Position numbers and translations under genes: made by a program
From: Chitinophagales bacterium
GTDB taxonomy: Bacteria; Bacteroidota; Bacteroidia; Chitinophagales; LD1
NCBI GenBank assembly: GCA_046329495.1
Contig: JAXLUO010000016.1
Location: 21,499 to 85,498, forward strand
Direction: 5' to 3'
DNA: 64,000 nt
The notes under the pieces: generated by a model
Databases searched by the model: none
Seen by the model: only the letters and a program-made list of their open reading frames with translations
What the model was told of the DNA's origin: nothing
Shown: in pieces, positions 50,971 to 64,000 of the stretch
Position numbering within the stretch: the first letter of the stretch is position 1
Layout of the letters: every line of letters starts with the position of its first letter

Positions 50971-51297
50971 TTATCTACCTTTTGAGCGCAACAGCAATTC
51001 CTCGTAAGCCTCCATTTTGGTCTTCATTTTATTGAAGTCTTCAATTACCTGCGAGTAGGTAATATTGGCAAACTGCTGCATGGTCTCATCATTGATGGGT
51101 ATGTCATAAGCAAGAAGGAAGGAAAGGTCAACCTTCATAACCCGGCAAAACCGCCGTAAAGTACCAATCCTTGCGTTTGAACTCCGGCTTTCAAGCGAGC
51201 TATAAGCCTGCTGGCTTATTTTCATTTCTTCAGCAATTGCACTTTGTTTAAATCCGCGGTACTCCCTGATTTTCTTGATTCGTTTTGCTAATAACAT
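50971..51297 (-). CDS. XRE-family HTH transcriptional regulator (paralog A)
   Basis: RIKKIREYRGFKQ..IAEEMKISQQAYSSLE. Confidence 0.9.
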   Translation of the reverse strand: MLLAKRIKKIREYRGFKQSAIAEEMKISQQAYSSLESRSSNARIGTLRRFCRVMKVDLSFLLAYDIPINDETMQQFANITYSQVIEDFNKMKTKMEAYEELLLRSKGR

Positions 51298-55439: not shown

Positions 55440-55634
55440 ACACTGCATTTATGCGCCATAGCAGCTGGGTAGAGCTGGCTATGGCGCTGATGCGGTAATC
55501 CGCCCTTTATATTCAAACGGTAGTATCCCAAGCCCGTCTTAAAGTTCCTCGAGTGCTACCGCTTTCTGTAGATTGAAGTAATTGTTCTCATTCGGGGCTG
55601 AAGGCTAAAGAAGGCGTAAAAATTTCGTGACGGT
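55440..55634 (-). ncRNA. 6S RNA-like (ssrS-like) non-coding RNA
   Basis: Minus strand: CAGCCCCG closing stem, unpaired bubble, GCGGUAG..CUCGAG-GAACUUUAAGAC-..CUUGGG..CUACCGU hairpin, UUGAAUAUAAAGGGCG. Resembles the 6S CCCCUGAG / CGAGAAGCCUUAAAAC / UUGAACCAAGGG motifs. TAGCTTTG promoter box at 55647-55640. Confidence 0.6.
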
Positions 55635-61086: not shown

Positions 61087-62607
61087 ATGGACAAACCCCT
61101 CCGACTACTACTAATTGAGGATAATGAAGATGATGCGCATTTTATTTTGCGCATGTTCGAAACACACGGCCACGAGGTAGATTGCCAAATGGTCAAATCC
61201 GCTGATGGGCTTAAAAAAGCACTTAAAAAGGAATTTGACCTGATTGTTTCTGACTATTCTCTACCCGGCTTTGATGGTGGTAAAGCGCTAAACATCGTAA
61301 AAGAACATGGCCTTGATATACCATTTATCATCGTATCAGGTAAAATTGGTGAAGATGTAGCTGTAAGTTTGGTACAAGCCGGCGCGAGTGACTACATCAT
61401 GAAAGACAATCTCAAGCGTCTGATACCTGCAGTTGAGCGTGGCTTACAAGATGCGGAGATCAAGAAAGTTGCCCGCCGATCTGAAGATCGTCTTCAAACG
61501 CTTTCGCAAATTGTAAAAATGACCAATCACAGCGTTACCATAACAGATGCTGCAGGTCGTATTGAATGGGTAAACGATGGCTTTACTAAACTCACCGGCT
61601 ACAACCTTGACGAAATTGTTGGCAAAAAACCCGGTGACTTTTTAATAGGCCCGGAAACCAGTACAGAAACTGTTAAACGTAATTCGGAGTTGGTTCGCAA
61701 TCGACAACCTATTAACTGCGAAATACTAAACTACGCCAAAAGTGGCAGAAAATACTGGATTGAACTTCAAACTCATCCTATCTTTAATTCCCAGGGAGAA
61801 GTGACTAAGTTCTTCTCTTTTCAAATCGATATAACCGATCGAAAGTTGTTGCATGAGCGTGAACAACGCATTAACGAAGAACTTGAAAAGAAGGTAAAAG
61901 AGCGTACACTGGATTTGGAAAACATAAATCGGGACCTGGAGCGATTTAATTCTACTCTTTCCCACGACTTGCGTAGTCCTTTGCGACAAAACAAAATGCT
62001 GTTGGAGATGATGCAACGCAAGTTGAGTAAGCAACTGCAGGAGGATGAATTGGAAAACATAACCATCATCAAGAATAATATTCTGCGAATGGAGATGCTG
62101 GTTAATGGCCTTCTGGCACTTTCTAAATTAGGTAACAAAACGCTCGAATTAAGGGAAGTTAATGTTCAGGAGATTGCAAACACCGTGGTAAACGAATTGC
62201 AAAGCGAGTACGCATCCAATTTACATGAACTAACCATAGATGAATTACCAGTAATTACAGCCGACCCCATGTTAGTGCAGCAGATACTTCACAACCTGCT
62301 TTCTAACGCCTTTAAATATAGCAGCAAGAAAGAGCACCCTCGTGTTAAACTCGGTTATAAGAATAATGCCGGGGAGCATTTGTTTTTAGTGAGTGATAAT
62401 GGCGCAGGCTTCGATATGAAATATTACGATAGCCTGTTCGGTAATTTCAGTCGCTTACATGCTAATACCGAATTTGAAGGTGTTGGTTTGGGACTAGCCA
62501 ATGCTAAACGTTTTGCAGAAAAGTTAGGTGGCAAAATCTGGGCTGAAAGTAAACCTAACATGGGTAGCACTTTTTACTTTACTATTCCGGCAAATACTGC
62601 AGAGTAA
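61087..62607 (+). CDS. Hybrid receiver-PAS-histidine kinase
   Basis: N-terminal receiver (VSDYSLP), LOV-like PAS, SHDLRSPLR, NLLSNAFKY, GVGLGL. Confidence 0.92.
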   Translation: MDKPLRLLLIEDNEDDAHFILRMFETHGHEVDCQMVKSADGLKKALKKEFDLIVSDYSLPGFDGGKALNIVKEHGLDIPFIIVSGKIGEDVAVSLVQAGASDYIMKDNLKRLIPAVERGLQDAEIKKVARRSEDRLQTLSQIVKMTNHSVTITDAAGRIEWVNDGFTKLTGYNLDEIVGKKPGDFLIGPETSTETVKRNSELVRNRQPINCEILNYAKSGRKYWIELQTHPIFNSQGEVTKFFSFQIDITDRKLLHEREQRINEELEKKVKERTLDLENINRDLERFNSTLSHDLRSPLRQNKMLLEMMQRKLSKQLQEDELENITIIKNNILRMEMLVNGLLALSKLGNKTLELREVNVQEIANTVVNELQSEYASNLHELTIDELPVITADPMLVQQILHNLLSNAFKYSSKKEHPRVKLGYKNNAGEHLFLVSDNGAGFDMKYYDSLFGNFSRLHANTEFEGVGLGLANAKRFAEKLGGKIWAESKPNMGSTFYFTIPANTAE

Positions 62608-62610
62608 TTA

Positions 62611-62640
62611 AAAAGCCCTTGCAACTTATGCTGCAAGGGC
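62611..62640 (-). terminator. Intrinsic terminator
   Basis: GCCCTTGCA-8 nt-TGCAAGGGC followed by TTTT on the minus strand. Confidence 0.75.
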
Positions 62641-62641
62641 C

Positions 62642-62838
62642 CAAGTTCACCGGATATTAAGTTTGAGAGTTCGTTCGCTTTGGTTTACACACTTTCCGGT
62701 GCACTCAAGAAGTTAAACAATTCCGCTGTGGTTGGCCGCTACCGGCCGATACCCCTTCGGCGCTTTTAGTCCAGGTCAATCTACCCGAATACCTGGATTA
62801 AGGAAGTTTTATTAGCCAACCACCCGGAAATTGTTTAA
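62642..62838 (-). ncRNA. Candidate structured RNA of unknown family
   Basis: ~22-bp closing stem enclosing two hairpins, plus a separate 14-bp stem; see findings. Confidence 0.45.
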
Positions 62839-62843
62839 TCAAT

Positions 62844-63209
62844 TCAGGCAGCCTGACGGGCACCCATTTTATCTTTCATCAACAGTTCTTCGTAAACTGA
62901 GAGGCGGTTCAGCAATTTCTTGTATTCGTCAACTACATTGCTTAAGTGATTATTATCGAACATGCGGAGATTTTCGTCGGTTACAGGGATATCCATTGCC
63001 AACAGAAAAGGCATATCCACTTTCATTACATTGCAAAAGCGTTGCAAAGTTTCAATCTTCAGGTTGCCTGATTTGGTTTCAAGGCTGCTATAGGCCTGTT
63101 GTGTAATATTCATTTCCTGGGCTACGGCAGCTTGCTTTAAGCCACGGTATTCGCGAATTTTTCTAAAACGTTCTGAAAGGGTGCTGGTTGTTGTTGAATT
63201 TGTAAACAT
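62844..63209 (-). CDS. XRE-family HTH transcriptional regulator (paralog B)
   Basis: RFRKIREYRGLKQ..VAQEMNITQQAYSSLE; about 55% identical to paralog A by manual alignment. Confidence 0.9.
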   Translation of the reverse strand: MFTNSTTTSTLSERFRKIREYRGLKQAAVAQEMNITQQAYSSLETKSGNLKIETLQRFCNVMKVDMPFLLAMDIPVTDENLRMFDNNHLSNVVDEYKKLLNRLSVYEELLMKDKMGARQAA

Positions 63210-63268
63210 GACGTATGGTTTTTCGGTTAATTAATGGTTATAGTTTTTTATTTAATTGTTTCTCTTTT

Positions 63269-64000
63269 TTAGCGCACTAAGGCAATGTTTTCACTCTTAA
63301 GTAGGTTGCCGCCGTTTTGGCATTGGCCTTTCACTACATATACATACACTGCTAATGGTGCTGGCTCGCCGGCAATTGTGCCGTCCCAGCCTTCTTGAAC
63401 ATTCTTTGTTTCGAACACCAACCGGCCCCACTGATCAAACACATGGAAGTAGTCCAGATTGGTAAGTGAGTTAGAGCGAACAAACATGCGATCGTTAGTG
63501 CCATCGCCATTCGGAGTAAAGGTGTTTGGCAGGTAAACCGAGTTTGGATCGCAGCTTACTACATGAATGTTTATCGAATCGGTAACAGAACAGCCAAATT
63601 GGTTGGTGCCGGTTACGTATACAGTTTGCGATTGTGTTGGGAAAACAGAGGTTCTTCTGCAATCAGCACAGCTTATCGAATCGGCAGCTTGCCAGTTATA
63701 AGTTAAGTTCGAATGAGAAGCAGCATATACTGCAACTTCAGCGCCCGGAGTAGTGGTTACATCTTGTGATACTTCAATATCCGGAGTACCGCTAACCTGA
63801 ATGTTAACCTGAGCGGTGTCGGCAGTGCAACCAGGTGCGCTTGCTATGATGGTGAAGGTTGCCGGTTGATTGTTTAAGGTGGCTACAGGATTGGCTATCG
63901 TGGCATCGTTTAATAAGGTAGCAGGAAACCACATAAATGACACACCTGAATCGGGGCCCTGGGTAATTTGCGATCCCAGTTGAACGGTATCACCTGCACA
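63269..64000 (-). CDS. 3' part of a T9SS type-B cargo protein (gliding-motility-associated CTD), truncated by the window edge
   Basis: Frame is open to position 64000; C-terminal YLPNTFTPNGDGTND...FDQWG...WDG. Confidence 0.88.
   Translation of the reverse strand, partial: CAGDTVQLGSQITQGPDSGVSFMWFPATLLNDATIANPVATLNNQPATFTIIASAPGCTADTAQVNIQVSGTPDIEVSQDVTTTPGAEVAVYAASHSNLTYNWQAADSISCADCRRTSVFPTQSQTVYVTGTNQFGCSVTDSINIHVVSCDPNSVYLPNTFTPNGDGTNDRMFVRSNSLTNLDYFHVFDQWGRLVFETKNVQEGWDGTIAGEPAPLAVYVYVVKGQCQNGGNLLKSENIALVR

Follow-up and report, generated by a model that had tools for sequence, protein, structure and literature searches.

A structured RNA domain, folded as a three-way junction of four helices (P1, P1b, P2 and P3), is present on the minus strand at 62713-62838 of the window, which is the whole stretch of 64,000 nucleotides from a Chitinophagales bacterium that was analysed here, and it lies behind the gene of an XRE regulator, named XRE-B. 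The domain was delimited by its minimum free energy fold, its homologs, their covariation and a covariance model (CM). Judging from the sequence comparisons, it is very likely that the structure has been selected on the XRE sense strand. The best explanation overall, which we consider to have somewhat better than an even chance, is a conserved structured 3'UTR domain of the XRE-B mRNA with G-rich loops that would bind a partner, and the best reading of its class would be an undescribed, clade-restricted structured-RNA family of the general 3'UTR/sRNA kind.

Locus and fold of the element

The element is housed in a 236-nt gap between a hybrid histidine kinase gene and XRE-B, as read from positions 61800-64000 of the window and the list of open reading frames (ORFs). 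The kinase gene (61087-62607, plus strand), which encodes a Response_reg-PAS-HisKA-HATPase_c protein according to Pfam, is the convergent syntenic partner, and XRE-B (62844-63209, minus strand) encodes 121 aa with HTH_3/HTH_31 according to Pfam and the ORF list. The stop codon TGA of XRE-B occupies 62844-62846 and the closing stem of the junction begins 5 nt 3' of it, exactly where an earlier sequence-only reading of the window had placed the start. The sense strand of XRE-B is the minus strand, on which the junction is also read, and the element is regarded as its putative 3'UTR.

A CHU_C adhesin gene located 5' of XRE-B (63269-64000, minus strand) continues beyond the window edge. The contig (C8) is 85792 nt long and the window ends at its position 85498, leaving approximately 300 nt, and the operon start is outside the assembly. 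Directly 5' of the XRE-B start, the segment AAAACCATA(C/A) (63210-63225, minus strand) is kept in all six homolog loci, with equivalents in L002, L010, L011, L055 and L058, while the remaining adhesin-XRE spacer diverges; it could be a translation-initiation or operator element. As well, the XRE family has multiple copies in the genus, reaching seven in a single genome (genus-wide loci L012-L037). Copies of approximately 70% identity sit directly upstream of PorP/SprF genes, and XRE-A of the window (50971-51297, minus strand) precedes the gene of a 1498-aa PKD/CHU_C adhesin and a PorP/SprF gene.

RNAfold of the minus strand gave -86.8 kcal/mol with z = -4.4, a stability that was equalled by none of 200 shuffles, and yielded the three-way junction together with a second stem and a terminator. 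The fold of the plus strand is equally good (z = -5.5), and since both strands fold well, thermodynamics cannot assign the strand, which is instead assigned by comparative data. In helix P1, the 5' strand UUAAACAAUU-U-CCG-G-GUGGUUGGC (62815-62838, minus strand) pairs with 62713-62736, forming a near-perfect helix of 22 bp in the window. Helix P1b, which closes the junction, is formed by the 5' strand CUUCC (62802-62806, minus strand) and GGUAG (62739-62743) and carries one U·U mismatch in the window. The P2 hairpin (62768-62799, minus strand) has a 9-bp stem, in which 62791-62799 pairs with 62768-62776, and an apical region of 14 nt (62777-62790), which includes the invariant GGGUAGA (62780-62786); if two further pairs form here (U-A, C-G/U·G), this apex would be a GGGUA pentaloop on a mini-stem of 2 bp. 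The P3 hairpin, GCCGA-AGGGGUA-UCGGC (62745-62761, minus strand), has an invariant GGGG loop core, and among the versions described below its loop measures 4, 7 or 9 nt, with GGGG in every one and GGGUA as well in the window-type sequences.

Next to the junction, a second hairpin domain (62642-62708, minus strand) folds in the window; it is lineage-specific and is located outside the conserved motif. It is followed by an intrinsic terminator (62613-62642), consisting of a 13-bp stem and then UUUUUAAUU, which was detected by the terminator scan on the minus strand only. The parts that the sequence-only reading had proposed were all recovered in their places, namely both arms of the closing stem, the hairpins GCCGA/TCGGC (62745-62761) and TCCAGGT/ACCTGGA (62770-62797), the second stem between 62642-62654 and 62695-62708, which appears in the minus-strand RNAfold structure, and the terminator hairpin with its T-run on the minus strand.

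The sequence-only reading had not recognised the element as SRP, RNase P, tmRNA, 6S or a riboswitch, and the search of Rfam 15 agrees with this: no family reached its gathering threshold when the whole window was scanned with cmscan, and a relaxed scan (E<=10) of the region 62400-63300 (901 nt, 4227 models) returned three chance-level matches only, with 11-13 bits compared with thresholds of 33-75, none of which spans the junction as a fold. A tRNA or tmRNA was rejected, as ARAGORN predicted no such gene in 62000-63400. A match to a repeat, which had been named as a finding that would speak against a new RNA, was likewise not found, and a MITE or dispersed repeat was rejected, with one BLAST match in the 4.23-Mb assembly, one CM match per genome in the four carriers and no second copy in the window by a full-sensitivity CM scan. 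It is scarcely credible that the element is a mobile-element remnant (MITE, attC-like site or IS end) or a degenerate known RNA (tRNA, tmRNA or ribozyme). The terminal inverted repeats of approximately 22 bp flanking some 80 nt do suit such a remnant; however, the element is single-copy in its own genome and in each relative's, occupies a syntenic site and occurs nowhere else in the window, neither ARAGORN nor Rfam at E<=10, ribozymes included, returned a known RNA, and the sequence of the inverted repeats is not kept in the relatives G012 and G033, whereas the inner fold is.

Homologs, covariation and strand

BLAST among 60 relatives retrieved one homolog, G024, with 82% identity at the same site. 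A covariance model built from the window and G024 only (R1) was too narrow, and over 400 genomes of the order it returned the training pair and a weak match in G205. The 260 nt downstream of every XRE homolog were folded, and the same architecture was found in G012, G033 and L050 (XRE identity 87-88%), L058 (86%) and L055-57 (94%), with stem sequences that largely differ despite the common architecture. The XRE protein search in genome and metagenome contigs contributed L050 as the only extra locus, and the protein-cluster route gave L055-L058 plus population variants. In this way, six distinct versions were identified at one syntenic site, each folding independently into a three-way junction, and the syntenic order is T9SS adhesin (PKD and CHU_C), XRE, RNA, terminator and convergent kinase.

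The XRE-B orthologs of 85-97% identity all have the RNA, and it was found only behind XRE orthologs that are at least 85% identical, the same ones that share the adhesin-XRE-kinase arrangement; the kinase is convergent at all RNA-bearing loci. No such RNA is present behind the XRE paralogs of approximately 70% identity, where the PorP/SprF gene comes directly after, or behind the 77% ortholog L059, where the kinase is replaced by a different downstream gene. P1 begins 3-5 nt past the XRE stop in five of the six versions and approximately 11 nt past it in G012. The motif was detected in 31 of 31 loci from many samples, which comprise 11 distinct sequences. Identical contigs occur in Logan runs that include SRR34831215, SRR34831220 and SRR13823730 and, for the G033 type, SRR10538954 and SRR9827757. 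Variants within a type consist of indels and substitutions in internal loops and two A-to-G changes that make G·U pairs, and population variants mostly fall at unpaired positions or form G·U pairs, while the variant of L079 and L082 disrupts a P1 pair. Concerning the neighbouring gene, the convergent kinase in some Logan contigs of the G033-type organism (L068 and L074, 1102-1557, and also L072 and L075-L077) is called either as two genes, a 71-aa HATPase_c and one of 420 aa, or with another 3' end, which might reflect a frameshift, a difference in assembly or a true polymorphism.

The carriers are uncultured Chitinophagales MAGs. A covariance model of the full motif (R2) detected it in four of 40 genomes of the genus, with one copy each, and in no further genome among 400 of the order (157 genera). 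A model of the 76-nt core (R3) found nothing credible in 400 genomes of the class (200 genera); its matches of 15-23 bits, in which P3 is missing or the stems are broken, are as numerous as expected by chance and were rejected. Also rejected were a CM match in G029, which is within a coding sequence, and a 23-nt match in G016, which is inside a coding sequence and attributable to chance.

The homologs also define the extent of the element. The sequence-only reading had described a unit of approximately 230 nt, of which the junction at 62713-62838 proved to be conserved and the second stem did not. The second hairpin is weak in G024, altered in L055 and absent in L058, G012 and G033, and in the latter three the terminator comes directly after the junction. 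A terminator is found at the equivalent position in every homolog, with a differing sequence; these terminator sequences are not homologous to each other.

Plain MAFFT placed P2 and P3 of the divergent homologs out of register, and an alignment of seven sequences was built by hand under the guidance of the structure, with gaps coded as N and the rows checked against the original sequences. The structure tested on it consists of 42 pairs in the four helices P1, P1b, P2 and P3. In this alignment, which, being hand-made and structure-guided, biases the pair counts towards the structure, 94.1% of the cells are in standard pairs, compared with 77.5 ± 1.7% in shuffles and 20-47% when the partners are slid by 1-3 columns. 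Both sides have changed in 18 of the 42 pairs (shuffles 10.9 ± 1.8) and in 45 cells (shuffles 15.5 ± 3.0), and none of 500 shuffles attained any of the observed measures. RNAalifold, applied to the same alignment, returned the identical four helices with 18 compensatory pairs.

The double changes include seven of nine pairs in the P2 stem and three of five in P3, which is paired in 100% of cells. Moreover, the inner 9 bp of P1 covary (GC, UA, AU and CG types) in L058, G012 and G033, and the outer AU-rich segment of P1 is shorter or missing in G012. P1b reads CUGCC/GGUAG, CUGUU/GGCAG or CUGCU/GGCAG in the homologs, and its changes are only from G-C to G·U. Between the window and G012, which are the two most distant types, 14 of 36 positions in the core stems are identical (39%), compared with 16 of 22 unpaired core positions (73%). 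The invariant positions include GGGUAGA at the P2 apex, which occurs in 11 of 11 distinct sequences, GGGG in the P3 loop, and CU.../GG-Y-AG of the P1b junction. A search for covariation in homologs downstream of XRE-B orthologs had been suggested as a check of the element, and by both the pair counts and RNAalifold the covariation is strong. The support which it lends to the fold is good for so few sequences, given that the independent lineages number only about five, all of them from one sub-clade of one genus.

As to the strand, there are 22 G·U cells compared with two A·C cells, and R2 scores the window at 123.8 bits on the minus strand compared with 20.6 bits on the plus strand; the G·U excess and the score by strand point to a selected structure on the XRE sense strand. 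It might instead be proposed that the region has no RNA function and is an inverted-repeat-rich spacer, such as a bidirectional terminator or a DNA palindrome (e.g., an operator), which is similar among the loci by recent ancestry. Such a spacer would agree with the good folding of both strands and with the narrow clade, and related sequences can beat column shuffles even without structural constraint. However, this explanation is quite improbable, because the stems of the most distant types are only 39% identical and pairing is nonetheless kept in 94% of cells, double changes having occurred in 18 pairs, and because the slid-partner controls keep the relatedness but fall to the 20-47% given above. 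Furthermore, an excess of 22 to 2 of G·U over A·C is unexpected for a double-stranded DNA site, and the second hairpin, the terminators and the adhesin-XRE spacer at these same loci have diverged freely.

Transcription context and possible function

Promoters were assessed by a consensus word only, the Bacteroidota -7 element TAnnTTTG. In five of six loci, the sense strand lacks this word both within XRE-B and ahead of it, and the adhesin-XRE spacers contain it in no locus; its sole sense-strand occurrence is in G024, within the CDS and 120 nt before the stop. A promoter scan also found no sigma-70-like site. Given that the RNA has no promoter word of its own and is followed by a terminator on its 3' side, it is most simply explained as the 3'UTR of the adhesin-XRE or XRE transcript, and the junction is probably the 3'UTR of the XRE-B mRNA. 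Its location, 5 nt after the XRE stop, with the terminator at 62613-62642 and without a promoter word, is the one expected of a 3'UTR-derived sRNA. The earlier suggestion of either a 3'UTR-derived sRNA or an XRE-associated RNA has gained support, as the element is tied to XRE-B orthologs, is on the XRE strand and lacks a promoter word. On the opposite strand, TAAGTTTG (62658-62665, plus strand) forms a -7 word within the second hairpin's loop and is directed antisense to both the junction and XRE; this promoter word is probably due to chance, because it is not accompanied by a -33 TTTG and G024 does not share it.

For the conserved 3'UTR domain, the element would be produced within the adhesin-XRE transcript, where the long P1 may insulate the junction from the coding region. 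In five of six versions, P1 begins so close to the stop (3-5 nt past it) that a ribosome terminating there could partly unwind the helix. The two G-rich apical loops might then present a recognition surface for a partner, which would be an RNA-binding protein or C/U-rich target RNAs, and the presence of two similar G-rich loops on one scaffold suggests that such a protein would be dimeric or bivalent, or that the targets would be C/U-rich RNAs. The RNA could influence, in cis, what becomes of the XRE mRNA, or it could be processed from the 3'UTR and work in trans as a small RNA. We give this specific mechanism, a 3'UTR or sRNA that works by binding a partner, an even chance.

With regard to a protein partner, tblastn on the genome identified two RRM-type proteins, encoded on contig C12, and neither Hfq nor CsrA (E. 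coli CsrA query, E<=1e-3). Bacteroidota have been described as lacking Hfq, ProQ and CsrA and as possessing sRNAs derived from 3'UTRs along with a global RNA-binding protein of the RRM type (PMC11697453). For instance, RbpB, an RRM protein of Bacteroides, is a global sRNA binder whose ligands include a 3'UTR-derived sRNA (PMC11697453). With regard to RNA partners, the GGGUAGA and GGGG loops could serve as seeds for pairing with target mRNAs, and a genome-wide duplex scan for UCUACCC sites, the complement of the P2 loop, gave no outstanding or start-codon-proximal target. The top non-self complement of the P2 loop, CAAUCUACCCGG, which is on another contig (C31, approximately 209737, plus strand), belongs to the 3'UTR of a sigma-70-type gene and immediately precedes the terminator of that gene. 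In the window, the complement MTCTACCC occurs seven times compared with 2.05 expected, a number reached in none of 100 shuffles; the sites include 55467-55474 (minus strand) and 61259-61266 (plus strand), and one of these matches is the antisense strand of the element itself.

The element sits right after the stop codon and ahead of the terminator, each carrier genome has a single copy, invariably in cis to XRE-B, and P1 of the window-type sequences is an almost perfect helix of 22 bp. These features would also suit a purely cis-acting processing or stability element, in which P1, as an RNase III-type site or a block to 3' exonucleases, determines the half-life of the mRNA of XRE-B (and of the adhesin), with no trans activity. 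We hold this to be unlikely. P1 of G012 has only 4+8 bp with internal loops, which would make a poor RNase III substrate, and P1 of G033 is also much shorter than that of the window; since P1 is so reduced in both, a role that requires a long double helix is not general. In addition, a stability element needs neither invariant loops nor a three-way junction, whereas GGGUAGA and GGGG are the best-conserved positions, and the 3' end is already protected by a separate terminator hairpin.

Another function might be that of a ligand- or protein-responsive sensor RNA, which tunes read-through from XRE into the convergent kinase and thereby antisense interference. Riboswitches are commonly built as a three-way junction whose junction and loop nucleotides are conserved, and the RNA strictly co-occurs with the convergent kinase, being absent in L059, where another gene replaces the kinase. 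Nevertheless, no alternative pairing joins P1 and the terminator, which are separated by the non-conserved hairpin in the window and are adjacent and non-overlapping in G012 and G033; no riboswitch family matches, and the conservation is found in the apical loops instead of a junction pocket. A sensor is accordingly rated as very unlikely. A riboswitch or cis-acting leader was rejected as well, as no gene follows the element on its own strand, its neighbour being convergent, and P1 and the terminator do not overlap.

A bolder proposal would be that the junction, as an RNA of a new class that binds a protein or a metabolite, forms a physical link between the T9SS adhesin/XRE operon and the convergent kinase, for instance, as a gate of antisense read-through or as a cofactor or decoy of XRE-B. 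We give it little chance, and if it were true, the coupling of adhesin/XRE and kinase by an RNA would represent a regulatory logic that is undescribed for surface-protein loci of Bacteroidota. For the conserved 3'UTR domain itself, the interest lies in the fact that RNA regulators of Bacteroidota are poorly charted outside gut Bacteroides, and the junction offers a small, concrete test object for RNA-binding partners in environmental Chitinophagales. Moreover, its host gene belongs to an XRE regulator family that is embedded in T9SS adhesin/PorP loci, which raises the question of whether these regulators are themselves controlled post-transcriptionally. The value of the element is limited by its narrow distribution, that is, one sub-clade of an uncultured genus.

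Comparison with known RNAs

The junction shares with the hammerhead ribozyme the three helices that meet at a junction and a comparable size. However, the CUGANGA ... GAAA catalytic core is missing from it, and at E<=10 it is matched by none of the hammerhead models. Hairpins of the boxB type, with GNRNA pentaloops, are bound by the N proteins of lambdoid phages, and the apex of P2 can be drawn as a GGGUA pentaloop closed by C-G or U·G, which would fit GNRNA. Unlike boxB, the junction has no antitermination context, N-like protein or nut-site arrangement, and the pentaloop would depend on the two proposed base pairs.

Similar to CsrB and RsmZ, the junction has a short G-rich motif that recurs in the loops at the tips of different hairpins, an arrangement that would be suitable for a dimeric binder. 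In contrast to these RNAs, it has two loops only, the motif is GGGUA/GGGG and not A(N)GGA, and it is contained within a 3'UTR instead of forming a separate gene. A sponge of the CsrB/RsmZ type was rejected, as tblastn at E<=1e-3 detected no CsrA and the two loops are without multiple GGA.

Pedo-repair, Bacteroidales-1, Flavo-1 and Chlorobi-RRM are candidate structured RNA motifs of Bacteroidota in Rfam that were identified by comparative genomics. As with these motifs, the evidence for the junction consists of fold, covariation and a fixed gene neighbourhood. Unlike them, the junction is located 3' of its associated gene, whereas most of those motifs are 5', and none of the Rfam 15 models matches it.

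Small RNAs derived from 3'UTRs include CpxQ and SroC of enterobacteria. Within Bacteroidota, FopS-14 of Bacteroides thetaiotaomicron is also a 3'UTR-derived small RNA (PMC11697453). The junction differs from RNAs of this kind in having no sequence or covariance-model similarity to any described sRNA and in occurring once per genome in a very narrow clade. Moreover, those RNAs combine a single-stranded seed with a terminator, whereas the junction, as predicted from its sequence, is compact and has a long closing helix. Nevertheless, like FopS-14, CpxQ and SroC, it is located directly behind a coding sequence, has no recognisable promoter of its own and shares the terminator of the mRNA, and, like FopS-14, it belongs to a phylum with documented 3'UTR-derived sRNAs and an RRM-type RNA-binding protein.
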